Positions 25,053-55,169 are shown, counted from the stretch's first letter. The stretch: DNA of 64,000 nucleotides from Deltaproteobacteria bacterium RIFCSPLOWO2_12_FULL_60_19 (GCA_001798595.1 MGSS01000037.1:33477-97476); one strand, 5' to 3'. Numbers and translations: made by a program. Notes: generated by a model from the letters alone, not told the origin.

Positions 25053-25158
25053 GCGGTCTATCTACCACGCCGCCGTGAATTTTTCCAAGTTGCGCCGGAG
25101 CCTTCCTTTTTGGCGCGGAAAAATGTAGATTGCGCTCATCGGTCGGAAGGAGAAAGCC

Positions 25159-26142: not shown

Positions 26143-26151
26143 AGCAGAGCG

Positions 26152-26356
26152 CTCGCTGGCTCGAACGGGTTAGAGTCCGAAGGCGCGAACCCTTCCGGTC
26201 GACGGCCGATCCTCGCTTCGCTCGAAATCTCAGATCGCAAATTTCAGATCTCAGAATTGCAATTTGAGATATGTGATTTGAGATCCCGAAGGGCAAGCCG
26301 TCGCCCTTCACGGTTCACGCCTTCGGACACGCGTCTGCCGTGATCCAGCCAGCGGG
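26152..26356 (-). repeat. Nested hairpin: outer arms, family-A-type arms (26175-26328), family-C cargo (26210-26294)
   Basis: GTCCGAAGGCGCGAACC/GGTTCACGCCTTCGGAC inverted arms; CCCTTCCGGTCGACGGC and GCCGTCGCCC shared with 44100-44163. Confidence 0.8.
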
Positions 26357-26371
26357 AGTAACGAACCCAGG

Positions 26372-27076
26372 CTAACTTCTCTTTCGCGCTTGTCTCGCCC
26401 GCCTGACAAAGTAGTCCCACATCGAGCCCAGCCGGTGGGGAGTGTAGATCTGCTCGAATTTGACCGGCGACTCTTCGTCGCTGGTCCACGACGGATCGCC
26501 GGAGGCCGTTGCCAGCAGGTGGATGCGGCAGGCCTTCTCCAAAAAAACCGCATAGAGCGTCGCCACTTCGATCGACTCTCCGACGACGGTCGAGCCGTGA
26601 TTTTTCATCAGCACGCCGCGACACTTGGCCAGCGACTTGGCCACCCCGACGCCGAGTTCAGGCGTGCGGATGAGCGCGGTCGTGGCGTCGAAGGTCGGCA
26701 GCCCTTCGTAGAAAATATTCCCCTCGTGGCTGATCGGCCTTAGCTTCTGGCCGAGCGCGCCGAAAACCGTCGCGTAGGGCGGATGGGAGTGCACCACACA
26801 GTTGACATCGGGACGCGCCTTCATGATTTCGGTGTGGATGAAGACCTCGGAGTGGCGTTCGTATTTGCCATCGATCTTCTTGCCGGTCGCGATGTCGACG
26901 ACGATGATGTGCTGCGGTCGGATCTCCTCGAAGCCGAAGCTGTGCGGCTTCATCAGGATCTTGTTCTGTCCGGGAATGCGCACGGAGACGTGGCCGAGGA
27001 TGTTGTCCCAGTGGCCCTCGTTGGCGAGGATGTTGCAGGAGTATGCCAAATTCTCTTTGAGTTCTTTGAGGCTCAT
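26372..27076 (-). CDS. Class II aldolase/adducin family protein
   Basis: GHVSVR, HSEVFIH, VVHSHPP, MKNHG; AGGAGA RBS. Confidence 0.92.
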   Translation of the reverse strand: MSLKELKENLAYSCNILANEGHWDNILGHVSVRIPGQNKILMKPHSFGFEEIRPQHIIVVDIATGKKIDGKYERHSEVFIHTEIMKARPDVNCVVHSHPPYATVFGALGQKLRPISHEGNIFYEGLPTFDATTALIRTPELGVGVAKSLAKCRGVLMKNHGSTVVGESIEVATLYAVFLEKACRIHLLATASGDPSWTSDEESPVKFEQIYTPHRLGSMWDYFVRRARQARKRS

Positions 27077-27167
27077 GTTGTCTCCTTCCCGAGTAGTCGA
27101 TGATGAAAGATTTTTTTCTGTATCATGGTTCGATAAGATTTTCCAAAGGTGTCCACCCATCGTTACT

Positions 27168-27244
27168 GTAGGGGCGCAATTCATTGCGCGCAGGCTAATC
27201 CCATTGGGCGTTTCCGGAGAGGGCGCGATAAATCGCGCCCCTAC
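27168..27244. repeat. GTAG-type REP doublet (REPIN-like)
   Basis: GTAGGGGCGCAATTCATTGCGCGC ... GGGCGCGATAAATCGCGCCCCTAC. Confidence 0.85.
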
Positions 27245-27265
27245 GCCAGGTGAAATGGTGCGCGC

Positions 27266-28807
27266 TTATCTGCCGCCGCGTAGCTTAAATCGCTGTATTT
27301 TCCCCGTGACGGTCTTGGGCAGCTCGTCGACGAAATCGACCCATCTCGGATATTTAAACGGCGCGAGCCTGCTTTTGACCAGCGATTGCAGTTCGTCCTT
27401 CAGTTGATCGCTCGCCTTGTACTCGCTCTTGAGCAGGACGTAGGCCTTGGGCTTCAGCAGGCCGTCGTGATCGGGCTGTCCGACCACCGCCGCTTCCAGG
27501 ACGGCGGCGTGCTCCATCAACGTATTTTCGATCTCGATCGGCGAAACCCATAGACCCCCGACCTTGAGCATGTCGTCTGAGCGGCCGCAGTACCAGTAGT
27601 AACCCTCTTCGTCGCGATAATAGGTGTCCCCGGTCTTGAGCCACTCCCCCAGCATCGTCCGTTTGGTCTGCTCGTGCTTGTTCCAGTAGTAGGGGGCGGT
27701 GGCGTCGCCCTTGACGAGCAAGTTTCCGACCTGGCCGGTCGGCACCTCGCGCCCCTCTTCGTCGACGATCTTCGCCTCAAAAGCCGGCGTGACTTCGCCG
27801 CTGCTCCCTGCTTTCGCCCGGCCCGGCCGGTTGGCGAGAAAGTCGTGCGTCGCTTCGGTCGAGCCTACGACGTCGAGCAGCTCCAGCCCGTACTTCTCCT
27901 TCCACTGGTGAAACAGCGCCGGTGGCAGCGGCTCGCCGGAGGAGAGGCAGATCCTGAGCGAGCTCAGATCGTAATTTCGCTCGACGCGCAGCAGCCGGGC
28001 GTAAAGCGTCGGCACGGAAAAGAAAAAGGTCGGGTGGTATTTATCGATCACGCGGAGAATCTTTTCCGGGTCGGGACGCTCGGGCCAGAGGACGGTGGCC
28101 GCGCCGAAGCGAAACGGAAAATAGAGCGAGTTGCCCAGACCGTAGGAGAAAAAGAGCTTGGAAGCGGAGAAACAGAGATCGTTTTCGTTCATCCCGAGCA
28201 CCGGCTTCGCGAAGAGATCGGTGATCGTGATCATGTCGTGCTGCAAGTGGACCGCCCCTTTGGGCGAGCCGGTGCTGCCGGAGGTGTAGGCCCACCAGGA
28301 GACATCGTCCTTGGCCGTCGGCTCCGCCTCGAGCCGAGTCGAGGCCTTGGAGCTGAACAGGTCGAAGGAGACCGCACGCCCTGTTGGCTTGCCCACCACC
28401 AGCACGGCTTTGAGCTGTCGGGGCTGGTTCCAGATCGGCTCGAATTCAGGCAGGACCGACTCGTGGATGACGGCGACTTTGGCGCGGCTGTCCTGGAGCA
28501 GATACTCATAGTCCTTCGACTTCATCCACGGATTGGTCGGTATCGGCACGGCGCCGATTTTGATCGCGCCGAAGAAGCTGAAGGCGAATTCGGGAGAGTC
28601 GGGCAGGGCCAGCAGAACGCGCTGCTCGATATCGACGCCCAGCTCTTTCAGCGCGTTGCCGGTCTGATTGACCTTTTCGTAGACGTCCTGGTAGGTGAAT
28701 TTCTGGTCGTTGTAGTAGATGGCGACCCGTTTGCCGCGACCTTGGGCGACGTTCTCGTCCACGAAGGTGGTCGCCGCGTTGTAGATGTCGGGAAGGTCGA
28801 GCTTCAT
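27266..28807 (-). CDS. Benzoate-CoA ligase family protein
   Basis: YNAA, YTSGSTGSPKG, KLFFSYGLGNSL, GSTE, GRSDDMLKVGG, LPKTVTGKIQRF. Confidence 0.9.
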   Translation of the reverse strand: MKLDLPDIYNAATTFVDENVAQGRGKRVAIYYNDQKFTYQDVYEKVNQTGNALKELGVDIEQRVLLALPDSPEFAFSFFGAIKIGAVPIPTNPWMKSKDYEYLLQDSRAKVAVIHESVLPEFEPIWNQPRQLKAVLVVGKPTGRAVSFDLFSSKASTRLEAEPTAKDDVSWWAYTSGSTGSPKGAVHLQHDMITITDLFAKPVLGMNENDLCFSASKLFFSYGLGNSLYFPFRFGAATVLWPERPDPEKILRVIDKYHPTFFFSVPTLYARLLRVERNYDLSSLRICLSSGEPLPPALFHQWKEKYGLELLDVVGSTEATHDFLANRPGRAKAGSSGEVTPAFEAKIVDEEGREVPTGQVGNLLVKGDATAPYYWNKHEQTKRTMLGEWLKTGDTYYRDEEGYYWYCGRSDDMLKVGGLWVSPIEIENTLMEHAAVLEAAVVGQPDHDGLLKPKAYVLLKSEYKASDQLKDELQSLVKSRLAPFKYPRWVDFVDELPKTVTGKIQRFKLRGGR

Positions 28808-28810
28808 CCG

Positions 28811-28896
28811 TCCTCGCTATGCTCGGAATCTCAGATCTCATATGGCAAATCTCAAATCTGGAATTTGAGATCTGAGATTTGAGATGCCCGCAGGGC
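28811..28896 (-). repeat. Family-C hairpin (AGATYTS heptamer-rich), fills the intergenic spacer
   Basis: TCCTCGCT..GCTCGGAATCTC...GAGAT(G)CCCG(A/C)AGGGC ends shared with 26210-26294 and 30497-30590. Confidence 0.85.
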
Positions 28897-30369
28897 CTAT
28901 TCTCCCCCCACCGCCTCCGACTGCGTCTCGGTGGCGATGACGACCGACTTTGATTCCGTGTAGTGCTCGATCGCCTCTTCGCCGTGCTCCTTGCCGATGC
29001 CGCTCTGCTTTACTCCGCCGAACGGCAACTCGTCGTAGATGATCTGCGCCGAGTTGATCCAGGTGTAACCGGCCTCGATCTCTTCCGCGGCGAGCATCGC
29101 TTTGTTGATGTTGCGCGTCCAGACCGAGGAGCCAAGACCGAAGATCGAGCTATTTGCCTGCCGGATGCCGTCTTCCAAATCTTTAACCCGAACGATCGGC
29201 AGCGCCGGGCCGAAAACTTCCTCTTTGATCATCCGGGACTCCGGATCGACGTCGGCGACGAGTGTCGGCAACAGGTAGAAGCCTTTGTCGTAGGCGCCGC
29301 CTTTGGGCCGCTCCGCGCCGAGGAGCAGCTTCCCGCCGCGCTTGACCGCGTCTTCTACCTGCTCTTCGACCTCTTTGCGTTGTTCGGCGGTGTGGAGCGG
29401 CCCCATGATCGTCTCACGGTCCAGGCCGTTGCCGATTCTCAGCTTTTTGACTTTCTCGACCAACTTCTCGATGAATACGTCGGCGATCTTGTCGGCCAGA
29501 TAGAGTCGCTTAACGGCCAGGCAGGCCTGTCCGCAGTTGAAGAAGCGGCCGACGGAGGCGGCGCTCACCGCCCGGTCGATTTCCGCGTCCTCACAGACGA
29601 TCATCGGATCGCTGCCGCCGAGCTCCAGCGTTACGTGCTTGAAATCTTTCGCGGCCGACTGCATCACCCGTCTGCCGGTGTCGGTCGCGCCGGTGAAGCC
29701 GATCTTTCGCACCGTCGTATTGACGAGCAGCTCTTCGCCGACGACACTGCCCGGACCGGTGACGAGGTTAAGGACTCCTTTGGGGCCGCCGGCCGCCTGG
29801 ATCGCCTTGTCGATCAGGTCGCAGCAGCGGATGTCGGTGAGCGGAGTCGTTCCCGCGGGCTTCACCACGACCGTATTGCCGGCCAAGAGCGCAGGGCCGA
29901 GCTTGTTGCCCATGAGGGAGACCGGAAAATTCCACGGCACGATCGCGCCGCAGACACCCAGCGGCTTGCGCAGGACGAGGCCGTGCCGTCCGTGGTCGAG
30001 CACCACCGCGGCGGTGCGGAGGCTCTTCGCCATGCCGCCGTAATGGTCGAGCGTGTGGACGAAGCGGCGAATCTCCAGGATCGACTCACGGAACGGTTTT
30101 CCCTGCTCCTTCGTCAGCAGAGTCGCCAACTCTTTTTCCTGTTCGAGAATCAGCCGGCCGGCCGCGAGCAGGGCGGCGCCGCGCTTGGACGGGGCCATCT
30201 GGGACCATTTTTTCAGCGCGCCGGCGGCGACGTCGATAGCTTTGCGGATGTCGTTGACGGTTCCCTTGGGGACGGTGTCGACTACTTCGCCGGTGGCCGG
30301 ATTACGCACCTCGGTCGTCTGTTTGCTCTCCGAGTCCAGATACTCGCCGGCAACAAAAAATTTCGCCAT
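28897..30369 (-). CDS. NAD(P)-dependent aldehyde dehydrogenase
   Basis: IVPWNFP, FTGA, LELGGSD, NCGQAC, EEVFGP, PFGGVKQSG; GGAGG RBS. Confidence 0.95.
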   Translation of the reverse strand: MAKFFVAGEYLDSESKQTTEVRNPATGEVVDTVPKGTVNDIRKAIDVAAGALKKWSQMAPSKRGAALLAAGRLILEQEKELATLLTKEQGKPFRESILEIRRFVHTLDHYGGMAKSLRTAAVVLDHGRHGLVLRKPLGVCGAIVPWNFPVSLMGNKLGPALLAGNTVVVKPAGTTPLTDIRCCDLIDKAIQAAGGPKGVLNLVTGPGSVVGEELLVNTTVRKIGFTGATDTGRRVMQSAAKDFKHVTLELGGSDPMIVCEDAEIDRAVSAASVGRFFNCGQACLAVKRLYLADKIADVFIEKLVEKVKKLRIGNGLDRETIMGPLHTAEQRKEVEEQVEDAVKRGGKLLLGAERPKGGAYDKGFYLLPTLVADVDPESRMIKEEVFGPALPIVRVKDLEDGIRQANSSIFGLGSSVWTRNINKAMLAAEEIEAGYTWINSAQIIYDELPFGGVKQSGIGKEHGEEAIEHYTESKSVVIATETQSEAVGGE

Positions 30370-30448
30370 TTCTTTCCTCCAACAGTAAACTGAAATTAGA
30401 AAAGAATCATCTTCCCTCTGGAATGTCAAGAATTTGCAGGCCTTGGAA

Positions 30449-30639
30449 AAAGGCTCCGCCGCCGCCCGCCCGGGAATCTCACTCCGGACCGACAAGTCCT
30501 CGCTGCGCTCGGAATCTCTCCGCCAAAGTACTGTGGCGGACAGATCTCAGATCTGAGATTTGAGATTTGCCATTTGAGATCCCGAAGGGCTCGCGTCGGC
30601 CCTCCGAGAGACCCCCAGACGAGCGCTGGTGGAGGCTTT
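30449..30639 (-). repeat. Three-level nested hairpin: family-D arms, family-C cargo (30497-30590), TCCGCC/GGCGGA mini-hairpin (30519-30540)
   Basis: Arms match the reverse complement of the arms of 44207-44341; cargo matches 28811-28896. Confidence 0.8.
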
Positions 30640-30673
30640 GCAACCGGCGGCTGATTGGCTGTATGCAAGAGCA

Positions 30674-32254
30674 ATGAGCGGACTGCCGGGAACGCTGCCA
30701 GAGCTTTTGCGGGAACAGGCGGGAAAGAGTCCCAAAAGCCTCCTGCTTCTGTGCAACGACCTGAGGCTGACTTACGGAGAGTTCGAGGGCGAGGTCCGGC
30801 GCGTCGCCCATGCTTTTCTCCGCTTGGGCGTGAAGCGGGGCGACAAGGTTGCCCTGCTGCTCGACAACTGCCCGGAGTTTCTCTTTACCGTTTTTGCCGC
30901 GGCCGAGATCGGCGCGGTCTTCGTCCCGATCAACACCGCCTCTTCCGCCGAGGAGACAGGCTACGTCTTAGGCCACTCGGAATCGAGTTATCTCCTCACG
31001 AGTCAAGCCTTTGTCCCGCTGGTGGAGCGGATACGGGAGAGCGGCCCGCATTTAAGGCGCGTCATCTCGTTGCAGATGGATCATAGGGCGGAGTGCCTGT
31101 CGTGGGATGAGTTTCTTCGCGGGGCATCGACTGACTTCACGCCCAACGCCGTGCAACCGGACGACATCGCGTCGATCACATACACGTCCGGGACAACCGA
31201 CCACCCCAAAGGGGTCATGCTCACGCAATATGCCTACTCTTTCGCGCCGCAGAAGCGGGCCGAAGCTCTAGGATGGAATGAAACCGACCGGGCCTTCGTC
31301 ATGTTACCGCTGTTCCACGTCAACGCCCTCTGCCACATGGCGATCGCGATGATGTCGGTTGGCGGAAGCATATTATTAACAGAAAAATTCAGCGCCTCCC
31401 ATTTCTGGGATCAAGTCCGCGAGCACAACGTGACGACTTCGAGCCTGATGCGCACGATCCCGAATATTCTGCTGAATCTCCCGGAGCGGCCCGACGATGC
31501 CAGGAATTCGCTCCGCCTGGCCGTCGCGCTGCTCCCGCCCGAGGCCCATCTTCGCTTCGAAGAGCGCTTCGGCGTCACGGTCGTCGGCTCCTACAGCCTA
31601 ACGGAAGATCTGCTCAGCGTGATCGGTCTGCAGGATAAAACCAGAAGAAAACTCGGCAGTTGCGGCCTGCCCGTCGCGGCCGAGGTGCACCAGGTCAGGA
31701 TTCTCGATGAACGCGGCGCTGACTGCGCGCCTGGACAGTTGGGCGAGATCGCAAAACAAAGCCCGACGGTCATGAAGGGATACTACAAAAATAGTGCCGC
31801 CACTTCAGAGGCCCTGAGGGACGGTTGGCTCTACACCGGCGACCTCGGCTATCTCGACGACGACGGCTTCCTCTATTTCATCGACCGAAAGAAGGATGTC
31901 ATCAAACGCGGCGATGAGAATATCTCCGCGGAAGAGGTTGAGAGGGTCTTAAACTCCCATCCGCTGATCGCTGAATCCGCCGTCATCGGCGTCCCCGACC
32001 CGATCCGCCAGGAGGAAGTGAAGGCATGCATCGTCCTCAAGCCTCCCGCCACACTCGAAACTCTGCCGCCGGAAGAGATCTGGGCCTTTTGCAGCCAGCA
32101 CCTCGCCGCCTTCAAAATCCCGCGCTATCTCGAATACCGCGATTCTCTCCCCAAAACGCCGAGTTCGAAGGTGCAGAAGGGTGTTTTGCGGGGTGAGGCG
32201 CGGGAGCAAGGGCCGCATGTCTTCGATTCAGTCCAAGCGGGGAAAGGGAAGTAG
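30674..32254 (+). CDS. Acyl-CoA synthetase (CaiC/crotonobetaine-CoA ligase-like)
   Basis: YTSGTTDHPKG, LPLFHVNA, YSLTE, GWLYTGDLG, LPKTPSSK. Confidence 0.9.
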   Translation: MSGLPGTLPELLREQAGKSPKSLLLLCNDLRLTYGEFEGEVRRVAHAFLRLGVKRGDKVALLLDNCPEFLFTVFAAAEIGAVFVPINTASSAEETGYVLGHSESSYLLTSQAFVPLVERIRESGPHLRRVISLQMDHRAECLSWDEFLRGASTDFTPNAVQPDDIASITYTSGTTDHPKGVMLTQYAYSFAPQKRAEALGWNETDRAFVMLPLFHVNALCHMAIAMMSVGGSILLTEKFSASHFWDQVREHNVTTSSLMRTIPNILLNLPERPDDARNSLRLAVALLPPEAHLRFEERFGVTVVGSYSLTEDLLSVIGLQDKTRRKLGSCGLPVAAEVHQVRILDERGADCAPGQLGEIAKQSPTVMKGYYKNSAATSEALRDGWLYTGDLGYLDDDGFLYFIDRKKDVIKRGDENISAEEVERVLNSHPLIAESAVIGVPDPIRQEEVKACIVLKPPATLETLPPEEIWAFCSQHLAAFKIPRYLEYRDSLPKTPSSKVQKGVLRGEAREQGPHVFDSVQAGKGK

Positions 32255-32294
32255 GCTATTGGCCGATTTCCGGCTAAAAACCCGGCTACTTCCT

Positions 32295-32323
32295 TTGACA
32301 TCGGTTTTCCTGGGTGTTATAGA
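32295..32323 (+). promoter_or_regulatory. Putative sigma70 promoter for bactofilin/atp operon
   Basis: TTGACA-17 nt-TATAGA with TG extension. Confidence 0.55.
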
Positions 32324-32357
32324 AAAAATTCGTCTGTCAAGGGGGGGTCTTGCAGTC

Positions 32358-32885
32358 ATGGCCTGGTTTGGTCGCGGCCCCCGAGAATCCAAGGGGCTGG
32401 TTGAAGATCGACCCGATCTGAGCGAAAGTTCGGCGACGCTTGACGAAGGCGGCGTGATCGAGCTCTCGGGAGAGGAGACGGTTGCCTATCTCTATAAAGG
32501 GAGCCGGGTGACCGGCCGCTTGACATTCCACGGCGCCGCCCGGGTGGACGGCAACGTGGACGGGGAGGTGCTGTGCAACGGCATTCTCACGATCGGAGAA
32601 GGGGCGGAGATCCGGGCCAAGGTCTCAGGCGACGTGATTGTGATCCACGGCCAGGTGGAAGGGGACGTTACTGCGACGGATAAGATCGAGCTTGGCGCGC
32701 CGGCCCACGTCGTGGGCAACATCGTCGCCCCGCGAGTAGTCGTGACCGAAGGCGTGGTGTTCGACGGTTACTGCACGATGGGCGGGGCCAAGGAGAAACG
32801 CAAAGTCAAGAATCCGCTGAGTTCGACGAGCGAGAAGGTCTTTGAGAGCGGCGCTCCCAAATTCATTACGACATTGGAGAAATAG
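32358..32885 (+). CDS. Bactofilin (polymer-forming cytoskeletal protein)
   Basis: GSRVTGRL..VDGNVDGEV..IHGQVEGDV..VVGNI..EGVVFDGYC beta-helix repeats. Confidence 0.9.
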   Translation: MAWFGRGPRESKGLVEDRPDLSESSATLDEGGVIELSGEETVAYLYKGSRVTGRLTFHGAARVDGNVDGEVLCNGILTIGEGAEIRAKVSGDVIVIHGQVEGDVTATDKIELGAPAHVVGNIVAPRVVVTEGVVFDGYCTMGGAKEKRKVKNPLSSTSEKVFESGAPKFITTLEK

Positions 32886-33018
32886 CTTTCGGAACGCCGC
32901 CCGACTTTTCCCCACATCAGGTTATTTTCCACAGATCGCGTGGAACCAGGCTCATGGCCGATCGGCCGTAGGCCGTGGGCTTGACGAGACGTTTACAAGG
33001 CAGGTCGCCCGCTGATTT

Positions 33019-33447
33019 ATGATCAAGCTGGATTACACGTTCGTCGTACAAGCCGTTCTTTTTCTGGCTCTGTTATTTCTCTTAAGGCGGCTGCTTTTCA
33101 CGCCGTTTATCGCTCTACTCGAAGAGCGGGAGAAAAAGACCGAGGGGGCCAAGGCCGAGGCGACGGCGCTGATGGCGGAGGGCGAGCGGCAGCGCGCTGA
33201 GTATGAGAGCGCGGTGGCAGAAGCACGGGATCGGGGCGCGGCGCTTAAGGAGGGCATCCTGCAGGAGGCCCGCAGCGGGCGTGAGCGGATCCTGACCCAC
33301 GCGCGGGAGCAGGCGGCGAGCAAACTCGCCGCCGTGCGCGAGGAAGTTCGGCAAGAGATGGCCAAGGCCCGGCAGGTCGCCGCCCGCGAGGCCGAAGATA
33401 TCGCGCGCCAGATGGCGGAAAAAGTTTTGGGTAGGAAAATCGGATGA
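33019..33447 (+). CDS. ATP synthase F0 subunit b'
   Basis: N-terminal TM, LLFTP..LEERE, coiled coil, KVLGR. Confidence 0.88.
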   Translation: MIKLDYTFVVQAVLFLALLFLLRRLLFTPFIALLEEREKKTEGAKAEATALMAEGERQRAEYESAVAEARDRGAALKEGILQEARSGRERILTHAREQAASKLAAVREEVRQEMAKARQVAAREAEDIARQMAEKVLGRKIG

Positions 33448-33995
33448 GCTTCTTTATCGCCGTGCTGTTGACCGCGCTCTGGGCGGCGCATGCCGCCGCG
33501 GCCGAGGAGCATGCGCCCGCGATAGGCCAGCTCCTTTTTCCCCTCCTCAACTTTCTCATCTTCGTTTACCTCTTAAAGCGCTATTTACTCCCCTTCGCCA
33601 AAGAGTATCTTAAGTCGCGGCGAGAGCAGATCGTCGCCGCTCTGAAGGAGTCCGCTGACTCTAAACAGCGGGCCGAAGCGCTGGTCCGCGACTATAAGGG
33701 CCGGCTGCAACGGCTCGATCAAGAGACCCGAGAGATTCGCGACGCGCTCAAGGCGGAGGGAGAGAGAGAAAAGGCCGGGCTCTTGGCCGAGGCGGAGGAG
33801 TCGGCGGCGAGAATCAACGCCGACGCCGATTTTCTAGCCGATCAGGAGACCAAGCTGGCGCGGCAGGAGTTACGGAGAGAAATCGCGCGCGCGGCCCAAG
33901 CGTCCGCCGGAAAGCTCGTTCAGGATAACCTGACGGCCGCCGACCGGAGACGGATGGTGGAAGAGTTTCTGAGCGAGGTCGGGGGCGCGCGATGA
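33444..33995 (+). CDS. atpF: ATP synthase F0 subunit b
   Basis: LLNFLIF TM followed by coiled coil; operon position. Confidence 0.88.
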   Translation: MSFFIAVLLTALWAAHAAAAEEHAPAIGQLLFPLLNFLIFVYLLKRYLLPFAKEYLKSRREQIVAALKESADSKQRAEALVRDYKGRLQRLDQETREIRDALKAEGEREKAGLLAEAEESAARINADADFLADQETKLARQELRREIARAAQASAGKLVQDNLTAADRRRMVEEFLSEVGGAR

Positions 33996-34534
33996 TCGAG
34001 GGGAGCTTAAGCCGGCGCTACGCCAAGGCTCTTTTCCAGCTCGCGCTCGAGGCGAAGCGCGAGGAAGAGATCGGGCAGGAGATCGAGCGCTTCAGCTCCG
34101 TCTATGGGGCGACCGAATTGAGGCAGGTTCTTACCAATCCGGCCTTTTCCGCGGAAAATCGAAAGAATGTTCTCATTCAGATAGCGCGGAGTCTTAAGCT
34201 TTCGCCGCTGGTTGCTAATTCCGTGGCGTTCCTGCTCGAGCGCGATCGTCTGCCTTATCTTCCTTCCATTATCTCGCGCTACCGGAGACTGCTGGATGAG
34301 AAGAACGGCCGGGTGGAGGCGAAGCTCGTGGCGGCCGGCCCGGTGGAAGAGAACGACATCAAACGGCTCAGCGCGGCGCTGGAGAAGGTCTCGGGCAAAC
34401 AGGTGGTCCTCGGCCAGGAGAGCGATCCGAGCCTGGTCGGGGGATTGGTGATTCACCTGGAAGGCAAAGTTTACGACGGCAGCGTGCGGACCCAACTGGA
34501 AAAGATGAAAGAGCGCATCGAGCGCGGCTATTAG
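33992..34534 (+). CDS. atpH: ATP synthase F1 delta subunit
   Basis: RRYAKALF, DPSLVGG, YDGSVRTQL. Confidence 0.93.
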   Translation: MIEGSLSRRYAKALFQLALEAKREEEIGQEIERFSSVYGATELRQVLTNPAFSAENRKNVLIQIARSLKLSPLVANSVAFLLERDRLPYLPSIISRYRRLLDEKNGRVEAKLVAAGPVEENDIKRLSAALEKVSGKQVVLGQESDPSLVGGLVIHLEGKVYDGSVRTQLEKMKERIERGY

Positions 34535-34572
34535 CCCGGATCGGTCATGGGACGAGGAAGGACCAAGCCACA

Positions 34573-34681
34573 GTGTCGATCGAGGGGGCGAGCCATGAAG
34601 GGCGAGGGCACCGACCGCGAAGGTTGCCACAAGGTAGAGCCCTATTGTCCTCGACCGGAGAGGCTCGTCCCCGAGAGCGCG
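34573..34681 (+). repeat. Structured hairpin repeat, family A, copy 2 (inside atp operon)
   Basis: About 90% identical to 5844-5952. Confidence 0.9.
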
Positions 34682-34707
34682 CATAACCTAAGCTAGGGAG
34701 GATACTC

Positions 34708-36215
<1,508 letters not shown>

Positions 36216-36216
<1 letters not shown>

Positions 36217-37076
36217 TGGCCACTCTTAAAGCGATACGCAAGCGGATCGGCTCGATCCGCAACACGCAGCAGATCACCAAGGCGATGAAGATGGTCTCCG
36301 CCGCGAAGCTGCGCCGCGCGCAGGAGGCGGTGGTGCAGGCGCGGCCCTACGCCGAAAAGATGGCGGAGCTGTTTAACAACCTTTCCGCGCGCGTCTCCCG
36401 CGAGGCCCATCCGCTGCTGGGAGCGCGCGAGGAAAAACGGATTCAGCTCTTGTTGCTCACGTCGGACCGCGGGCTGTGCGGCGGTTACAACGCCAACTTG
36501 ATCCGGACGGCCGAGGGATTTATTCGCCGCGAAGGCGCCGGCAAAGAGATTCAGGTCGCGCTGGTGGGGCGCAAAGGGGCGGACCATTTTCGCCGGCGCA
36601 GGGCCGCGATCTCCGACCGCTACGTGAATATCCTCTCCACCCCCGCCGAAGAGCTGGCGGGCGAGCTGGCCCAGAAGCTGATCGGCCGCTTTGTCGGCGG
36701 CGAGACGGACGCGGTCTATATTCTCTACAGCCGCTTTCGATCGGCGCTGTCGCAAGTGCCGACGCTGGAGAAGCTGTTGCCCGTCGCCCTGTCGGAAAAA
36801 GAGAGCGCGGAACCGCTCACCGAGTATCTCTACGAGCCGGGGGTCAAGGAGCTGCTCGCGAGTCTTCTGCCAAAAGTGATCGAGGTCGGGATCTGCCGCG
36901 CGCTGTTGGAAGCCGCCGCCAGCGAACATGGCGCGCGCATGACGGCGATGGATTCGGCGACCACGAACGCGTCGAAGATGATGGGGAGCTTGACGCTCCA
37001 GATGAACCGGGCGCGCCAGGCTTCGATCACGCGGGAGTTGATGGAGATTGTCGGAACGGCGGAAGCGTTGAAGTGA
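36216..37076 (+). CDS. atpG: ATP synthase F1 gamma subunit
   Basis: QITKAMKMVSAAKL, DRGLCGG, RARQASITREL. Confidence 0.98.
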
Positions 37077-37082
37077 GAGGAT

Positions 37083-37295
37083 GAAAGCCGCCACCCGCTC
37101 TCCGAGCCTGCGCAATGGGTAGCTACTTATTCCCACCGGCAGTATCGGATGCCCAGGCTCCTCGAACGGGCGGCGGCTTTCTGTGCGAGGCCGAAGGGCG
37201 CGAGGGAGAGGGCCGCGGACGTCCGATGAGAATGGTTCGACTCATGGTAGCTACCTATCGGCCGCGGCCCGAAGACTCGCGCCGTGAGGGCTCGC
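37083..37295. repeat. Back-to-back hairpins: family B (37083-37181) and family E (37185-37295)
   Basis: Family B matches the reverse complement of 62704-62828; both hairpins contain a GGTAGCTAC(T/C)TAT motif. Confidence 0.85.
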
Positions 37296-37338
37296 TATCG
37301 GCGGAAACGAGCACGAACATGATACGCGGAGGTTTTGA

Positions 37339-38754
<1,416 letters not shown>

Positions 38755-38860
38755 GCAGTAAGAAGGCAGCAGGCAAAAGGCGCCGCCGGAGCAGAGGCTC
38801 CGCCAAAGGCGGATCAGTCCTTCGGCTGAGGATCAGCCTCCGGCTGAAGCAGGCAGTAAA
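38755..38860. repeat. Composite mini-hairpin cluster in atpD-atpC spacer
   Basis: TCCGCCAAAGGCGGA, tandem GGATCAGTCCTTCGGCTGA/GGATCAGCCTCCGGCTGA, flanked by AGGCAG(C/T) heptamer-like units. Confidence 0.6.
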
Positions 38861-38901
38861 AAACTAACGATCATGCCTGACGCCTTTGCATCGGTGGCAT
38901 A

Positions 38902-39318
38902 ATGGCAGGTAAGATAAGACTTAGACTGGTGACATTGAATCGGCTCTTGTTGGACGACGAGGTCGATGAAGTGACGGGGCCCGGCGCGTTGGGCGAGTTC
39001 GGCGTGCTGGCGCTGCACATTTCTTTTCTGACTCTGCTGGAGCCGGGAGAGATGAGTTACAAGCGCGGCGGCGAGCGGACGCATCTGGCGATCAGCGGGG
39101 GCTACGCCGAGGTCGTGGGCGATGTCATGACGGTGCTGGCGAGCGCCGCCGAGTTCAGCGGCGAGATCGACGTGGAGCGCGCTCGTCGGGCCAAAGAGCG
39201 CGCGGAGAAAAACCTGGGCGAATTGAGCCGTGAAGAAAAACAAGCGGTCGCGGCGGAAGCGGCCCTGCGGCGCGCGCTTGTGCGATTGCAGGTCGCGGGC
39301 AAAGAAGCGAGAAAATAG
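38902..39318 (+). CDS. atpC: ATP synthase F1 epsilon subunit
   Basis: GEFGVLALH, ISGGYAEV, EIDVERARRAKERAE. Confidence 0.95.
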   Translation: MAGKIRLRLVTLNRLLLDDEVDEVTGPGALGEFGVLALHISFLTLLEPGEMSYKRGGERTHLAISGGYAEVVGDVMTVLASAAEFSGEIDVERARRAKERAEKNLGELSREEKQAVAAEAALRRALVRLQVAGKEARK

Positions 39319-39335
39319 TTTCAGGAGGCAACGGT

Positions 39336-40466
39336 ATGGCAAATGCAGCGGCGCCTGCGCGCACGATGTGGAGTAAGAAGTTTTCCTATGACCTTTGGAT
39401 GGAGTCTGTCGGCTTGCCGATCCACAAGGGTTTTTACATCGAAGATATCAGAACGCTCGAACTGGCCTGGTGGGAGGAGCGGCAGTGCAACGCCGCCTTC
39501 ATCCAACTGATGGGGCAAGAGGGGGTGAGCGCCGCGCGGGTCACGGAGATCGCTCCGGGCAAGACCCTGCCGCCGGTCAAGTTCGCGCTCGACGAGATCG
39601 TCTACGTGGCTCAGGGGCGCGGTCTCGCCACGATCTGGGCGGGCAAAGACAGGCCGAAGAAGAACTTCGAATGGCAGGCCCACAGTATGTTCCTGATTCC
39701 GCACGGCTACACGCACCAGCTGAGCAACATGCAGGGCGACAAGCCGGTCCGGCTGCTCCACTACAGCTATCTTCCGCTCGCCTTGTCGGCGCTGCCCGAG
39801 CCGGATTTCTATTTCGGCAATCCCTATGAATTGAAAGCCGACTCCGCGGCCGAAGGCGATTTTTATTCCGAAGCCAAGGAAATTCAGGCGCAGGAGCGGG
39901 ACGAGTTTTTAAGCCTTAATTCCTTCTGGTACGGCAACTTCTTTCCAGACATGCGGGCCTGGGACCGGCTCGAGGCCAACAAGCGGCGAGGCGCCGGCGG
40001 CAAGACCGTCTATATTCAGTTCCCGCACTCGGAGCTCTCGGCGCACATGTCGGTCTTCGCCGCCCAGACCTACAAAAAGGCCCATCGTCACGGCCCGGGG
40101 CGCGTGATCGTGATCCCGGCCGGCGAGGGATACTCGATCATGTGGGAAGAGGGCAAAGAGAAGATCGTCTGTCCGTGGCACGAATGCAGCCTGCTCGTGC
40201 CGCCCAACAAATGGTTTCATCAGCATTTCAACGCCGGCGGGACTCCCGCGCGCTATCTCGCCTTTCATCCTCCCATGCAGTTCCACGGCCACGCCGAGAA
40301 GATCGAAGACCGGGCGAAGGATCAGTTCGAATATCCCGATGAAGATCCGTGGATCCGGAAAAAATTCGAGGAGGAGATGGGCAAGCGGGGACTCAAGTCG
40401 CTCATCCCTGCGGAAGCTTACACGGATCGCGACTTCGAATGGTCCAAGGGCATGGGAAAGAAGTGA
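39336..40466 (+). CDS. Bicupin protein, paralog 2
   Basis: KAHRHGPG...WFHQHFN; highly similar to 42944-44071. Confidence 0.85.
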   Translation: MANAAAPARTMWSKKFSYDLWMESVGLPIHKGFYIEDIRTLELAWWEERQCNAAFIQLMGQEGVSAARVTEIAPGKTLPPVKFALDEIVYVAQGRGLATIWAGKDRPKKNFEWQAHSMFLIPHGYTHQLSNMQGDKPVRLLHYSYLPLALSALPEPDFYFGNPYELKADSAAEGDFYSEAKEIQAQERDEFLSLNSFWYGNFFPDMRAWDRLEANKRRGAGGKTVYIQFPHSELSAHMSVFAAQTYKKAHRHGPGRVIVIPAGEGYSIMWEEGKEKIVCPWHECSLLVPPNKWFHQHFNAGGTPARYLAFHPPMQFHGHAEKIEDRAKDQFEYPDEDPWIRKKFEEEMGKRGLKSLIPAEAYTDRDFEWSKGMGKK

Positions 40467-40481
40467 GGTTGACGCGGCATC

Positions 40482-42008
40482 ATGCACGACGATCACGATA
40501 ACGAGCACGACCACGAGCACGGCGAGCCGTATGAGATCGGCCCCGACACCATTGTCGAAGACATCGAAGGGCTCGAGATGTTCACGCTGCGCAGCGTGGG
40601 CATCGACATCGGCTCCTCCACATCCCATCTGGTTTTCTCCCACCTGACTCTCAGGCGCGAGGGGGCGTCCCATTCGGGCCGCTTCCGCGTGACCGGCCGC
40701 GAGGTGCTCTATCGCTCCAAGATCATGCTGACGCCCTATCTTTCCGGGACGCTGATCGACACGGAGAAAGTTAAGGACTTCATCCACTTGGCTTACCGGG
40801 AAGCCGGCTTCACGCCCGACGATATCGATACGGGAGCGGTGGTGATCACCGGCGAGGCGCTGAAAAAAGAAAACGCCCGGCCGATTGTCGAATTTTTCGC
40901 CAAGGACTCGGGCAAGTTTATCTGCGCCTCCGCCGGCCCGAACCACGAGGCGCTGTTGGCCGCCTACGGCTCCGGCGCGGTCGATCTCTCCAAGCGGGAG
41001 AAGACGGCGGTGCTGAATGTGGACATGGGCGGCGGCACGACCAAGTTTTCCCTGATTCAGGACGGGATTGTGGCCCAGACCGCTTCGATCAACATCGGCG
41101 CGCGGCTGATCGCCTTCGACGACTCGGATGTCGTCACCCGTGTCGAGGACGCGGGCCGGGACATCATGAGACAGCTCGGCTATAGCGTCGCGCTGGGACA
41201 GAAGGTAACGGCCCAGCAAAAGGAGGATTTCGCGGCCTTCATGGCGGAGGTTCTCTTCGAGGTGATCGACGGCGGCCCCACTTCCGCGCTGGCCAAGAAG
41301 TTGATGGTCACCGAGCCGTTCAAAAACTACCGCGGGCTAAGCGATATCGGCAGCATTGTTTTTTCCGGCGGCGTCTCGGAGCACATCTACGATCACGATC
41401 GCACGTCCTACGGCGACGTCGGACCGCTGCTGGGAAAATATGTGAGAGAGCAGTTGAAGAAGTTTTCCAGACCGGAGCTGCTGCGCGAGCCGAACGAAGG
41501 GATCCGCGCCACCGTCATCGGCGCGGGGGAGTACACCATCCAAGCCAGCGGGACGACGAGCTATATTTCGAGCGCCAAGGCGCTGCCGGCCTTCGGCTTG
41601 AAGGTCATCCGCGTCCCGCTCAATGGGCAGGATTCCGCGGCGGAGAACCTAAGACAAGGGTTGGCTAAATTCGACCTCCCCGCTTTTACTTCGGGCCTTG
41701 CCCTGGCGTTTTCGCTCGACGATCAGCCCGACTACCAGTCGATTAAAAAAATCGCCGAGGGGATCGTTGCGGTAGTGCGCGACTCCGGCGTCAAGACTCC
41801 GCTTTATCTCGCGCTCGACATCGATGTGGCAAAATCTTTGGGAGCGATTCTCAAGGAGGAGCTTAAACTCGCGCCGGAAGTGATCGCCGTCGACGGGATC
41901 GATGTCGGCGACCTGGACTACATCGACATCGGCCTCCCCATGGGGATCACCGAGGTGATCCCGGTCACGGTCAAGTCGTTGATGTTTCCGTCGACGCAGT
42001 TGGGCTAG
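40482..42008 (+). CDS. EutA-like ASKHA-fold ATPase with His/Asp-rich N-terminus
   Basis: SVGIDIGSSTSHLVFS, DTGAVVITGE, AAYGSGA, NVDMGGGTTK, GIRATVIGAG, DYIDIG, PVTVKSL. Confidence 0.85.
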   Translation: MHDDHDNEHDHEHGEPYEIGPDTIVEDIEGLEMFTLRSVGIDIGSSTSHLVFSHLTLRREGASHSGRFRVTGREVLYRSKIMLTPYLSGTLIDTEKVKDFIHLAYREAGFTPDDIDTGAVVITGEALKKENARPIVEFFAKDSGKFICASAGPNHEALLAAYGSGAVDLSKREKTAVLNVDMGGGTTKFSLIQDGIVAQTASINIGARLIAFDDSDVVTRVEDAGRDIMRQLGYSVALGQKVTAQQKEDFAAFMAEVLFEVIDGGPTSALAKKLMVTEPFKNYRGLSDIGSIVFSGGVSEHIYDHDRTSYGDVGPLLGKYVREQLKKFSRPELLREPNEGIRATVIGAGEYTIQASGTTSYISSAKALPAFGLKVIRVPLNGQDSAAENLRQGLAKFDLPAFTSGLALAFSLDDQPDYQSIKKIAEGIVAVVRDSGVKTPLYLALDIDVAKSLGAILKEELKLAPEVIAVDGIDVGDLDYIDIGLPMGITEVIPVTVKSLMFPSTQLG

Positions 42009-42024
42009 CGGCCCGCGGCGGAAC

Positions 42025-42891
42025 ATGGCCGAATACTTCGCGCTGCAGGCCGCGCTCTTTTTTGCCTCTTCGCATATTCTGATCCGGCGCGGCCTGGTCT
42101 CCTCGAACGCGCTGACCGGCTCGGTTATTTCGCTCGGCCTTTCGGCTCTGACATTATGGATCATGGTTCCATTTTCCGTGCCTTTGTCGGCCTTCATGAC
42201 CTCTGCGAGCTGGTATTTTCTGGTAGCCGGGCTTTTTGCGCCGGGTCTCGGGCGGACGCTCACTTACGTGGGGATCGAAAAGATCGGCGTGGCCCGGTCG
42301 GTGCCGGTTTCCAACTGCTCGCCCATCGTCGCGTCGATTCTCGCCGTGGTGGTTTTGGGGGAGGAGTGGAGGCCAAGCAATATTTTGGGTACTTGTCTAG
42401 TCATTCTGGGGATCGTGATTCTCTCAACCGGCCATTCCGCCAAGGGAAGTTGGCGCAAGGCCGATATGATCTATCCGGTGCTGTCGGCCATCGTCTTCGG
42501 CATCTCAACCAACCTGCGCAAGCTGGGCCTCATGATCAGCAACCTTCCGCTGATGGCTGCGGCCTTGACCGCGGCTACAGCGATCATTTTTGCCGGCGGC
42601 ATGGTGTGGATGCGAGGGGGAGTGCGGGAGTTGCAGTTCACGAGGGCGAGCCTGGGTTGGTTCTTCGCCGGCGGGCTCGTGAACACGGCGGCGATGCTGT
42701 CGGCATTTTACTCGCTGAGTTTCGGCAAGGTGGTCGTCGTGGAACCTTTGATCTCGACCAACCCGGTTATCTCCATCGTGCTGTCCGCGATTTTTCTGAG
42801 AGACCTCGAGGCGATTACGTCGCGCGTGGTGTTGGGCGCGACGCTGACCGTGATCGGCACGCTCCTCGTCATGGCGGCGGCCAGATGGTAA
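42025..42891 (+). CDS. DMT/EamA family transporter
   Basis: About 10 TM helices, two EamA repeats. Confidence 0.85.
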   Translation: MAEYFALQAALFFASSHILIRRGLVSSNALTGSVISLGLSALTLWIMVPFSVPLSAFMTSASWYFLVAGLFAPGLGRTLTYVGIEKIGVARSVPVSNCSPIVASILAVVVLGEEWRPSNILGTCLVILGIVILSTGHSAKGSWRKADMIYPVLSAIVFGISTNLRKLGLMISNLPLMAAALTAATAIIFAGGMVWMRGGVRELQFTRASLGWFFAGGLVNTAAMLSAFYSLSFGKVVVVEPLISTNPVISIVLSAIFLRDLEAITSRVVLGATLTVIGTLLVMAAARW

Positions 42892-42943
42892 TATGTAAAT
42901 GGGAATGATTTGGGCGACACAAATCTACGGAGGAGGAAGTTAG

Positions 42944-44071
42944 ATGGCAAGCGGCATTGAAACGGTTCGCAACATGTGGAGCAAGCATTTCACCTACGAC
43001 GAGTGGATGGAGTCGCGGGGCGTGCCGATTTATCGGGGGTACTACATTGCGGATTTACGAACGCTGGAGCTGGGCTGGTGGGAAGAGCGGCAGTGCAACA
43101 CCGCTTTCATCCAGCTCACGGGACAGGAGGGGGTAACCGCCGCCCGCGTGACCGAGATCGCTCCCGGCAAGACGCTCCCACCGGTCAAGTTTGCCCTCGA
43201 TGAGATTGTCTACGTTGTTGAAGGCCGCGGCCTCACGACGCTCGCGGCGGCTGGGGGAAAGTCGAAAAAGAGCTTCGAGTGGCAGAAGCACAGCATGTTT
43301 CTCATTCCTCACAACAGCCGGCATCAGTTCAGCAACATGCAGGGAGATAAGCCCGTGCGCCTGCTGCACTACAGCTATCTTCCCCTTGCGTTGTCGGCGG
43401 TAAGGGATCCCAATTTTCTCTTCTCCAACCCCTACGAGGCGCCCGAAATCGGGACCGGTCAAGAGGCGGATTTCTATTCCGAGGCCAAAATGGTGAAGAA
43501 CACCACCCTCGACGCCTCATGGTACAGAAATGTGTATTGGTACGGCAATTTCTTTCCCGACATGCGGGCCTGGGACAAGCTCGACACCAACGAGAGAAGA
43601 GGCGCCGGCGGCCGCAGTGTCTATATCCAGTTTCACGATTCGGAGATGTCCTGTCACATGTCGCTGTTCGACTCGCGGACCTATAAGAAGGCCCACCGCC
43701 ACGGCCCGGGGCGCGTGATCGTCATTCCGGTCGGCGAAGGCTACTCGATCATGTGGGAGGAGGGAAAAGAGAAAGTGGTGGTGCCGTGGCATGAGGCGAG
43801 CATGTTCGTGCCGCCGAATAAGTGGTTTCACCAGCACTTCAACGTCGGCTCGACGCCGGCGCGCTATCTGGCGCTCCATCCGCCGATGCAGTTCCACGGC
43901 CACGCGGAAAAGGTCGAGGACCGGGCGAAAGACCAGATCGAGTATCCCGACGAGGATGCAAGCGTTCGGCGCAGGTTTGCCGAAGAGCTCTCAAAGCACG
44001 GCCTCACGAGCCTGATGCCGGAAGAGGTCTATAAGGACAAGAACTTTCAGTGGTCGAAACCGGCCGCGTAG
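42944..44071 (+). CDS. Bicupin protein, paralog 3
   Basis: KAHRHGPG...WFHQHFN; GGAGGA RBS. Confidence 0.85.
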   Translation: MASGIETVRNMWSKHFTYDEWMESRGVPIYRGYYIADLRTLELGWWEERQCNTAFIQLTGQEGVTAARVTEIAPGKTLPPVKFALDEIVYVVEGRGLTTLAAAGGKSKKSFEWQKHSMFLIPHNSRHQFSNMQGDKPVRLLHYSYLPLALSAVRDPNFLFSNPYEAPEIGTGQEADFYSEAKMVKNTTLDASWYRNVYWYGNFFPDMRAWDKLDTNERRGAGGRSVYIQFHDSEMSCHMSLFDSRTYKKAHRHGPGRVIVIPVGEGYSIMWEEGKEKVVVPWHEASMFVPPNKWFHQHFNVGSTPARYLALHPPMQFHGHAEKVEDRAKDQIEYPDEDASVRRRFAEELSKHGLTSLMPEEVYKDKNFQWSKPAA

Positions 44072-44087
44072 CGCGGGCCTGAGCGAC

Positions 44088-44185
44088 CTCGGGGGCAAGC
44101 CCTTCCGGTCGACGGCAATATGGCTGTACTTTTAGGCAACCTTCGCGTTCGGTGCCGTCGCCCGTCACGGCTCGCCCCCTCGGTC
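44088..44185 (-). repeat. Structured hairpin repeat, family A, copy 3
   Basis: Reverse complement GAGGGGGCGAGCCGTGACGGGCGACGGCACCGAACGCGAAGGTTGCCTAAA... matches copies 1 and 2. Confidence 0.88.
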
Positions 44186-44206
44186 TGCTGCATCGCTATC
44201 GGTATT

Positions 44207-44341
44207 GCCCGCTTGGGGTCTCTCGGAGGGCCTACGCGTGGGACGAAGAGAGTCAAGCGTATTTCAGAGGTACTCTCGGTTCTGAGGGGCAGCGTGACAC
44301 CGACATATCGCGTCGGCCCGGAGAGAGATTCCCAGGCGGGC
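44207..44341 (+). repeat. Family-D hairpin with a different internal cargo
   Basis: GCCCGCTTGGGGTCTCTCGGAGGGCC...GGCCCGGAGAGAGATTCCCAGGCGGGC arms, homologous to 30464-30624. Confidence 0.8.
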
Positions 44342-44375
44342 TGGCTGCAGTAGGTCCTCCGTTCTCTCTGGCCTG

Positions 44376-52852: not shown

Positions 52853-52878
52853 GCTCGGTCGACGCAAGGAGGCCTGCC

Positions 52879-53952: not shown

Positions 53953-53986
53953 CCATCCGGGAAGCTGAGTTGCGGAACACGAAAAT

Positions 53987-54050: not shown

Positions 54051-54070
54051 TGTACGTAAGGAGGTTGACC

Positions 54071-55135: not shown

Positions 55136-55169
55136 GAAATCGATTAGGTCAGGAGAATAAATCGTAAAT

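Follow-up and report, generated by a model that had tools for sequence, protein, structure and literature searches.

Exchange of a short hairpin cassette among the cores of non-coding palindromic repeats in an uncultured Binatia-type bacterium

The DNA considered here is a stretch of 64,000 nucleotides from Deltaproteobacteria bacterium RIFCSPLOWO2_12_FULL_60_19 (GCA_001798595.1, MGSS01000037.1:33477-97476), hereafter the window, whose intergenic DNA between positions 26152 and 44341 holds nested hairpin-forming repeats. The genome to which it belongs (G000, in which the window is C37:33477-97476) is a 97% complete metagenome-assembled genome (MAG) of an uncultured Binatia-type bacterium, with 4,188,175 bases in 162 contigs at 59.7% G+C. 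A second genome of the same genus (G001) is syntenic with window positions 25000-45000 at 87-94% identity, and three further relatives (G003, G005 and G008) were available for comparison. Repeat families were censused over the whole genome by iterated nhmmer searches seeded with window copies, with loci merged across strands, and gene positions were taken from a crude gene caller built for this analysis.

The main subject of this report is module C, a short hairpin cassette that an earlier note, made from the sequence of the window, had placed in three settings. All three were found as claimed. At 26175-26328, arms of the type found in repeat family A (26175-26206 and 26297-26328; 32 nt, 81% complementary) surround a copy of C at 26210-26294, which takes the place of the A core; the corresponding nhmmer match to C is C37:59686-59769. 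At 28811-28896, C stands alone, and on the minus strand its heptad hairpin is followed by the Shine-Dalgarno (SD)-like AGCGAGGA, 3 nt ahead of the start codon (ATG) of the 27266-28807 gene. Finally, on the minus strand, the arms of a second family, D (approximately 30464-30496 and 30590-30626), enclose a mini-hairpin variant of C (30497-30589, with the mini-hairpin at 30519-30540).

Canonical members of both host families lie in the same window. A canonical D element, with its arms and its own core of approximately 70 nt, occupies 44212-44340 on the plus strand, which folds better, and matches the full nhmmer model with 114.5 bits. Canonical A elements are found at 5841-5956 (plus strand, the better-folding one), at 34541-34690 (plus strand; a full element of approximately 147 nt including the outer terminal repeats and bounded by TA/TAG, as seen by nhmmer and from the empty site in G001) and at 44083-44188 (the central hairpin part, on the minus strand, which again folds better). 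A repeat search recovered the A arms with the usual A core at approximately 5846-5951, 34578-34683 and 44083-44188 (106 nt, 82-85%), as well as the D arm shared within the window (27 nt, 93%); the D arms together with their core span 44207-44341. The earlier note had read these sites as A and D arms carrying different cores; the sites exist, but their cores are the usual cores of the two families.

Module C is a cassette of 82-95 nt with fixed ends. Read on the strand opposite to that used in the earlier note, it is made up of a CCCUUCGGG-type mini-hairpin, then a long AT-rich hairpin built from GAGAT-type heptads, then another mini-hairpin and the SD-like AGCGAGGA; the end opposite this tail is the CCCGNAGGG mini-hairpin. 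The mini-hairpin beside the SD-like tail is predicted to have a GNA loop and two G.A mismatches. The termini, TCCTCGC ... GAAGGG(C), are the same in every context, including the other arm types of G003, G005 and G008. The heptad part varies, but non-heptad ends that stay constant over 25 copies and four genera argue that C is a true family. Among 25 full-length copies, D arms hold 10 in the same and 5 in the opposite orientation, family J arms hold 2, A-type arms hold 1, and 7 stand alone. With both orientations represented inside D arms, and with a whole D element inverted at a locus shared between the genomes (see below), the fixed polarity proposed in the earlier note does not hold. Copies of C in D arms share 92-93% identity with the A-hosted copy and 90% with a copy hosted by J, and the A-hosted copy shares 90% with a stand-alone one; on these comparisons, a single C lineage occupies several host types.

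The same cassette recurs in the relatives, where it sits on a J-like stem four times in G008, in D-like arms in G003 and G008, in J arms in G003 and on another stem type in G005. The exact unit is thus carried by at least five unrelated stem types in four genera. Its relation to genes is also regular. Of the 23 C loci outside D arms, 3 overlap gene calls, and a gene starts at the SD-like end in 16 of the other 20, typically with 3-4 nt before the ATG. Shortened copies of C keep this end as well, and C may supply the host with a ribosome-binding site.

Alignment of orthologous loci at base level revealed that the core within a pair of arms can differ between the two sister genomes. (A simpler rule, by which an element spanned by a single high-scoring segment pair is present, was unreliable and scored swapped loci as present.) At 26152-26340, arms and flanks are the same in both genomes, and the core is C in G000 and an ordinary 37-nt A core in G001. 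At 30464-30624, both genomes have the D arms, which enclose C in G000 and an ordinary D core in G001. Two further loci, G000:C75:36526 and G000:C129:5093, show the converse, with shared arms around an ordinary D core in G000 and C in G001. Flanks and arms at these four loci are approximately 85-95% identical between the genomes, and the core type differs at four of the seven shared-arm loci compared, the seventh of which (C94:19497) was counted without base-by-base alignment. At C102:22346-22473, compared with contig C87 of G001, a whole D element (arms and core) is inverted next to a shared arm of another family, O, which looks like a flip between inverted arms; at C131:21330, D is present in both genomes and O with its core K has been added in G000. 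These comparisons show exchange in place, at the DNA level, after the split of the two species of this genus. The earlier note had envisaged, as one possibility, insertion into the loops of other hairpins. Because the host core is absent rather than split, the outcome is instead a replacement.

How freely arms and cores combine was tabulated over the whole genome with separate models for each. For D, 151 arm loci resolved into 70 proper pairs and 11 solo arms; 56 of the pairs enclose the D core, 14 enclose C and none encloses anything else. For A, 21 of 24 arm pairs enclose the A core, and the interiors of the other 3 are either diverged or very short; the pair at 26175-26328, which has diverged too far to be recognised by the arm models, is the sole case of A-type arms with C. 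No A, D or J core was found in foreign arms in this tabulation, and no gene-sized cargo was found within 5 kb between D or A arms, D pairs lying at most a few hundred bases apart. Arms and cores are therefore not in fixed combinations, and the modules are multi-copy, as the earlier note would have it. Its notion of interchangeable cargo survives in that one core occurs in different arms and the same arms hold different cores, but only C is an alternative cargo, family E and the mini-hairpin being small inserts. Most families normally move as whole units, arms together with their own core.

The window is a sample of a dense community of non-coding, hairpin-forming mobile repeats, comprising at least eight nhmmer families (A, C, D, E, H, J, O/K and F12). 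When 2,180 intergenic regions (844 kb) were compared with one another, 88,233 bases lay in repeats with at least three partners. Chance does not account for these repeats: the best E-values were 1e-26 for A, 1e-23 for C and 1e-37 for D, with 27 merged loci for A (24 near full length), 39 for C and 80 for D. The remaining families number 47 merged loci (H), 15 loci (J, with the architectures 'C J' and 'H C J' among them), 50 loci (K), 41 loci (E) and 40 merged loci (F12). Element O, of approximately 127 nt, has K as its core; when up to three mismatches are allowed, there are 105 occurrences of its 20-nt arm motif. Many copies of D are bounded by K on one side and by the right arm of O on the other, and E has been placed between D and O, within a C copy and within a D arm. 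Nesting thus reaches a depth of four, from O through D and C to a mini-hairpin or E, which exceeds the three levels of the earlier note. The hairpin on which that claim relied is indeed present at 30519-30540, and its stem recurs at 38799-38813, but the mini-hairpin form of C is a subfamily rather than a fresh insertion: three full copies of it are present in this genome (window 30497, C94:50409 and C21:35291), C27 holds a partial match of 68 nt, and G003 has a further copy. No regular alternating arrays were found among 306 module clusters, which are mostly single or nested units.

Two of the families deserve separate description. In O, for example at C108:14835-14961 and C107:38008-38133, long arms surround K, and a conserved TTGAAAAnCTCT stretch precedes one side. 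In reverse orientation, O comes directly behind stop codons, frequently TAG, with a T-run after it, and 23 of 32 co-directional cases have this orientation; it resembles a portable terminator-like hairpin. The host may use this hairpin and T-run, and some repeat copies are probably used by the host. Family A, of approximately 150-190 nt and without an open reading frame (ORF), has outer terminal inverted repeats with TA on both sides in most of 24 aligned copies, as judged by reading the alignment. Its copy at 34541-34690 is a clean insertion, where G001 has a single TAG and no element, and a second TA boundary is seen at C102:39357. [quoted passage not shown] No parent insertion sequence (IS) with the ends of A was found in the assembly, which is incomplete, all matches to the A arms being short elements.

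Repeats also turn over between the two sister genomes. Anchors in G001 were available for 24 repeat clusters on five contigs; the gap differs between the genomes for 21 of them, and in 18 of these 21 G001 holds no module of the eight families built. The stop and start codons that bracket the stand-alone C (28811-28896) enclose, in G001, an AT-rich palindrome unrelated to it; opposite 37077-37310 (H and J) and 44075-44365 (A and D), G001 has unrelated shorter sequence; and the G001 contig syntenic with C32 has none of the four composites of D arms with C that C32 carries. These observations support the view that non-coding palindromic elements come and go between close relatives.

A comparison of divergence in cores and arms bears on how the composites arose. 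Three C32 composites have no differences in 82 core positions and 6-11 differences in 80 flanking positions. The C cores in composites differ by 0-6%, with a pooled core divergence of approximately 0.035, and the mean pairwise arm distance is 0.215 in same-orientation composites (n=9), 0.238 in opposite-orientation composites (n=5) and 0.154 in canonical D (n=56). Per-column diversity in seven composites of group 2 is 0.059 in the core, 0.095 in the 12 nt to its left, 0.218 in the 12 nt to its right and 0.25-0.32 further out in the arms; identity falls within approximately 12 nt of the C ends. Canonical D elements are the reverse, with a core distance of 0.249 and an arm distance of 0.121 (38 ungapped copies), and their arm and core distances are correlated (Mantel r = 0.24, a value reached in 12 of 2000 permutations). 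Composite arms are interspersed with canonical ones and often have these as their nearest neighbours. Compared with the arms around them, the C copies are much younger, which we read as repeated entry of C into D hairpins that had already diverged.

Given these results, we hold with moderate confidence that C is a discrete cassette that replaces the cores of other hairpins, among repeats that mostly move as whole units, and we infer that it is mobilised in trans by a single-strand-specific enzyme. Such an enzyme would be directed by structure, and the most plausible candidate would be an HUH/Y1 transposase of the kind represented by REP-associated tyrosine transposases (RAYTs; REP, repetitive extragenic palindrome) or by TIRYT. 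It would recognise the terminal mini-hairpins of C and target the tips of extruded hairpins, with inversion between arms and recombination between copies adding further shuffling. The single-strand constraint on base pairing and the likeness of the left end of C to REP hairpins, both set out below, speak for this account as well. A more specific form of this proposal would make C a 'loop cassette' that is excised precisely and installed at the extruded hairpin tips of unrelated families by an HUH-type enzyme acting in trans, expelling the resident core, and whose portable ribosome-binding site is exploited by the host. This fuller version is offered only as a speculation that, taken as a whole, is rather unlikely to be right.

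The strongest alternative invokes no special mechanism. Ordinary turnover, together with ectopic recombination or gene conversion, would have produced the composites by accident, once or a few times, after which they spread as units, the long, near-identical C cores being kept alike by concerted evolution as the short arms drifted. We consider this possible, if on the whole unlikely. Several features fit it well. Every group of composites carries a C subtype of its own, with junction nucleotides that do not vary, recombinant joints exist between families (such as A fused to O/K/D at C102:39357), and inversion between arms has been observed. Moreover, whole intergenic spacers have been replaced from stop to start codon between G000 and G001, so turnover combined with selection on the coding ends can mimic precise replacement. 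Other features are harder to reconcile with it. The canonical D cores have not been homogenised (0.249) and co-vary with their arms, which argues that conversion is not generally active in the D family. The composite of A-type arms with C lacks a second genomic copy that could have acted as donor, identity is lost within approximately 12 nt of the C ends, and the exact unit sits on at least five unrelated stem types in four genera. A difference in core type at four of seven shared-arm loci is likewise a high rate for accidents.

A number of results nevertheless weigh against the account that we favour. The pattern of young cores in old arms can also come from gene conversion confined to the long, near-identical C cores, and junction nucleotides that are constant within each composite group fit spread from a few founders as well as they fit a site-specific mechanism. 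The direction of the four exchanges is unpolarised, since the syntenic sites in G003 hold none of the modules. No target-site duplication was found at the ends of 39 C loci, 80 D loci and 35 O/K-bearing clusters, nor at the empty sites, and no fixed flanking tetranucleotide was seen at C, D or O, the left flanks of C being variable. The orientation of the better-folding strand relative to co-directional genes is mixed across families (sense:antisense, D 11:23, H 9:26, A 13:3, O 23:9), so no single strand rule applies. Independent sequence data give no check on the junctions, because Logan contigs from four public DNA runs (X2, X3, X9 and X12) break inside the repeats or C heptads and bridge no composite junction; such joints as they contain are of low likeness and could stem from relatives or from other copies. 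None of the 22 public runs listed held RNA.

To these points is added the search for an enzyme, in which none could be tied to any module. The earlier note had stated that no transposase is present in the window, and the five Pfam families searched (PF01797, PF02371, PF13358, PF07282 and PF04480), which leave other transposase families outside the search, do not contradict it. In the whole genome, PF01797 identified three paralogous Y1_Tnp genes (C64:70488-71453, C144:41798-42784 and C144:45853-46713) encoding TIRYT-like proteins of 286-328 amino acids whose tails are of the DnaA_C or HTH kind. Two of them, the gene on C64 and the first one on C144, have short inverted repeats of their own on their flanks, which fit the TIRYT consensus GGGG[AT][CG]A[CG], and none of the A, C and D modules was found in the flanks of the three genes. 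PF02371 yielded one IS110-type gene and PF13358 one DDE_3 (IS630-type) gene, neither of which has ends in common with the modules, and TnpB (PF07282) and DUF559 (PF04480) had no match in the genome. As the genome is a 97% complete MAG in 162 contigs, an autonomous partner may simply be unassembled. To our knowledge, TIRYT-type Y1 proteins have no known association with REPs and no known role.

Two known routes of mobilisation were also compared with the data. Mobilisation by a RAYT, as for REPs or for REPINs (REP doublets forming hairpins), is disfavoured by the lack of a RAYT flanked by modules and by the Y1 genes carrying their own flanking repeats. The inverted doublet of the REPIN type, folding around a spacer, is present (70 pairs in D and 24 pairs in A, with compensatory pairs in the stems). 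No GTAG/CGTC tag was seen at the D or A arm ends in the listed copies, although GTAG occurs inside the right O arm, and no systematic count was made. A non-autonomous element of the IS200/IS605 type is likewise disfavoured for C by its variable left flanks, the lack of TnpB and the TIRYT-like character of the Y1 genes. Separately, the DDE_3 gene lies in a low-G+C stretch (G000:C102:44200-46900) that a codon-usage gene caller rejected, which suggests foreign composition, and a 90-nt repeat just upstream of this gene recurs on C10, C150, C44 and other contigs.

Another explanation treats the modules as domains of structured RNAs present in many copies, or as cis-regulatory RNA elements, with C as a 5' untranslated region (5'-UTR) or intercistronic hairpin bearing a Shine-Dalgarno sequence and O as a terminator or 3'-end stabiliser. 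In its favour, genes start at the SD-like end of C in 16 of 20 loci outside D arms and gene calls, and O has a single orientation after stop codons with a T-run in 23 of 32 co-directional cases. Folding also differs between strands. Consensus folding energies are -60 on the model plus strand of D against -29 on the other, -41 on the model minus strand of A against -26, and -54 on the model minus strand of H against -32. One-sided changes at pairs with a Watson-Crick consensus yield G.U rather than A.C on the better strand in ratios of 52:14 (D), 28:1 (A), 27:8 (H) and 28:6 (O), and compensatory pairs number 5 of 34 in D, 8 of 23 in A and 7 of 30 in H. Within the window, the canonical A, the canonical D and the composite of D arms with C show a strand preference, and the composite of A-type arms with C and the stand-alone C do not. 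The earlier note's observation that all nested layers place G.T wobbles on one strand is accordingly borne out at 30464-30626, where the minus strand folds to -84.8 against -68.4 kcal/mol, but not at 26160-26340 (-83.0 and -80.9 kcal/mol). The strand constraint is real, but no single simple RNA role accounts for it, and nested layers need not share a strand.

Much else is difficult to explain by RNA function, which we therefore regard as an improbable account of the modules. The better strand of D and H is mostly antisense (11:23 and 9:26), and Rfam 15 gave no match in the window at the gathering score and none at E-values up to 0.1 in four other loci (20,504 bases, or 20.5 kb) holding O, K, D, A, C and J. 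Presence or absence at orthologous sites is a trait of mobile DNA, as are the solo arms, the truncated copies and the insertion of A between TA ends, and nested C keeps its SD-like end with no start codon following. Finally, a false joining of repeat copies by short-read metagenome assembly is scarcely credible, even in a 162-contig MAG for which the Logan contigs of four runs all break inside C heptads, since both flanks of the A-type and D composites with C are syntenic with one G001 contig, so that two matching errors would be needed at each site, and since the same architectures occur on many contigs and in independent assemblies (G001, G003, G008 and records of named MAGs).

Sequences like C extend beyond this genus. 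The pattern of its left end was found in at least 114 stretches of species-representative genomes, with 14 full C copies among 81 matches on 80 loci; the records with full copies are titled as Binatia, Deltaproteobacteria or Syntrophobacter(aceae) MAGs. Among the matches listed, the mini-hairpin of the SD-like end (approximately 21 nt) occurs without heptads in Acidobacteriota, Bacteroidota, Firmicutes, cyanobacteria and other phyla, for example in Granulicella (where a hexamer repeat follows), in Hymenobacter, in a Lachnospiraceae isolate and in cyanobacterial MAGs. In three of the listed loci (L131, L137 and L153), a C-like mini-hairpin lies directly 3' of GTAGGG, and GTAG-tagged REPs are described in sections of Di Nocera et al. 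(2013; PMC3733652) as the RAYT-associated class.

The window contains further repeats and genes of interest. The intergenic self-comparison also flagged 12070-12185, 37069-37307, 38791-38855 and 62704-62836. The first of these is a copy of the intergenic family F12, which has 40 merged loci. A long hairpin of family H lies at 37081-37207, with an inverted second copy at 62704-62830 (127 nt, 87%), and adjoins a family J hairpin at 37208-37306; elsewhere in the genome, J arms hold C at two loci. Small hairpin repeats with 14 BLAST matches occupy 38791-38855 and include the TCCGCC..GGCGGA hairpin whose stem is that of the mini-hairpin inside C. This sequence differs in G001, where an extra GC-rich hairpin of the GTAGGGGCAGG... 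type, not found in G000, lies on contig C12 beside the orthologue of window 38855, and similar GTAG-tagged hairpins fill the G001 spacer opposite G000:C102:19595. At the composite of A-type arms with C, an X12 contig (depth approximately 7) has a 24-nt extra piece at 26311 in the right arm that resembles the small E-type modules; it may be an insertion polymorphism in another population, and we place no weight on this contig.

Among the genes, the one at 42025-42891 lacks an equivalent in the G001 contig, which is syntenic apart from this (window 42091-42854 is unmatched). Two paralogous genes 3.6 kb apart, at 39336-40466 and 42944-44071, share 75-79% DNA identity over stretches of 300 nt, and a third relative lies near 10976-11169 (10612-11169). 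Three or four tandem paralogous genes at 51872-55684, spaced by 1100-1360 nt, have conserved N-terminal blocks in common.

Several known systems resemble parts of this one. Bacterial interspersed mosaic elements (BIMEs) of enterobacteria and neisserial intergenic mosaic elements (NIMEs) of Neisseria are mentioned in PMC3184786 and PMC3733652. They are mosaic, side-by-side arrays assembled from a few repeat modules in varying combinations. The mosaic vocabulary is alike, but in the present genome one hairpin sits coaxially on another, to a depth of up to four modules. MITEs such as Correia, RUP and ERIC offer a second comparison. Family A resembles MITEs with TA termini in its terminal inverted repeats, TA ends, clean empty site and lack of an ORF; it differs in having no parent IS with the same ends, and C, D and O lack a target duplication altogether. 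The words 'nested' and 'chimer' are absent from two reviews of MITEs (PMC3184786; PMC10969869).

The closest likeness is to REPs, which are also short intergenic palindromes and whose inverted dimers form one long hairpin around a spacer. According to the sections of Di Nocera et al. (2013; PMC3733652) on which we draw, other palindromes regularly have a REP or a REP dimer inserted at their centre (in A. variabilis, T. roseum and H. neapolitanus), and one REP dimer family may have several spacer types as well as hybrid dimers. Given such nested REPs, multi-spacer and hybrid dimers, the earlier note's claim of an organisation more modular than that of REPs and BIMEs was overstated. The left mini-hairpin of C itself resembles the REP-like hairpin that follows GTAGGG in other phyla. 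The differences are that no RAYT is flanked by modules, that the arms here span 30-45 nt and contain internal loops whereas REPs are simple and 20-40 nt long, and that what is nested here is always a single specific cassette of 85 nt, which takes the place of the resident core. The exchange in place seen here at orthologous loci is not described in those sections of PMC3733652.

Mobile elements are also known to use the palindrome of another repeat as their target. IS1397, ISKpn1, IS621, ISPpu9 and ISPpu10 insert at a fixed point of REP palindromes (Tobes and Pareja, 2006; PMC1525189), and in the account given in the sections cited these carry transposase genes and split the REP, whereas the element here is a non-coding cassette of 85 nt and the host core is lost. 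The palindrome-associated elements derived from IS200/IS605, as described in parts of two papers (PMC3333891; PMC6006769), share with C asymmetric ends, small subterminal hairpins, the lack of terminal inverted repeats or target duplication, and a preferred folding strand. They differ in that no conserved target tetranucleotide lies beside C, TnpB is lacking, and the Y1 genes here are of the TIRYT type. With nested REPs, dimers with alternative spacers and REP-targeting IS already published, the kind of system is known. In the main texts of the literature consulted, we found no single small cassette that replaces, rather than splits, the cores of several unrelated hairpin families, and no orthologous exchange evidence, age contrast between core and arms or SD-bearing end. 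Strings of 14-16 nt from the C end led to no relevant paper.

Few parts of bacterial genomes are as poorly understood as their small palindromic repeats, and the way in which these spread is known for only a few of them. Two sister genomes with different cores in the same arms at four loci, and one small cassette found on at least five kinds of stem in four genera, constitute a natural experiment. If the exchange is driven by an enzyme, it would combine the hairpin tip as a target with replacement as an outcome, which has not been described for REPs or MITEs, and it would point to a function for the widespread and unexplained TIRYT-type Y1 proteins. If it is due to recombination only, it would provide a clear case of how mosaic repeats are built. 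In either event, C with its SD-bearing end and O with its T-run are testable cases of repeats supplying expression signals.

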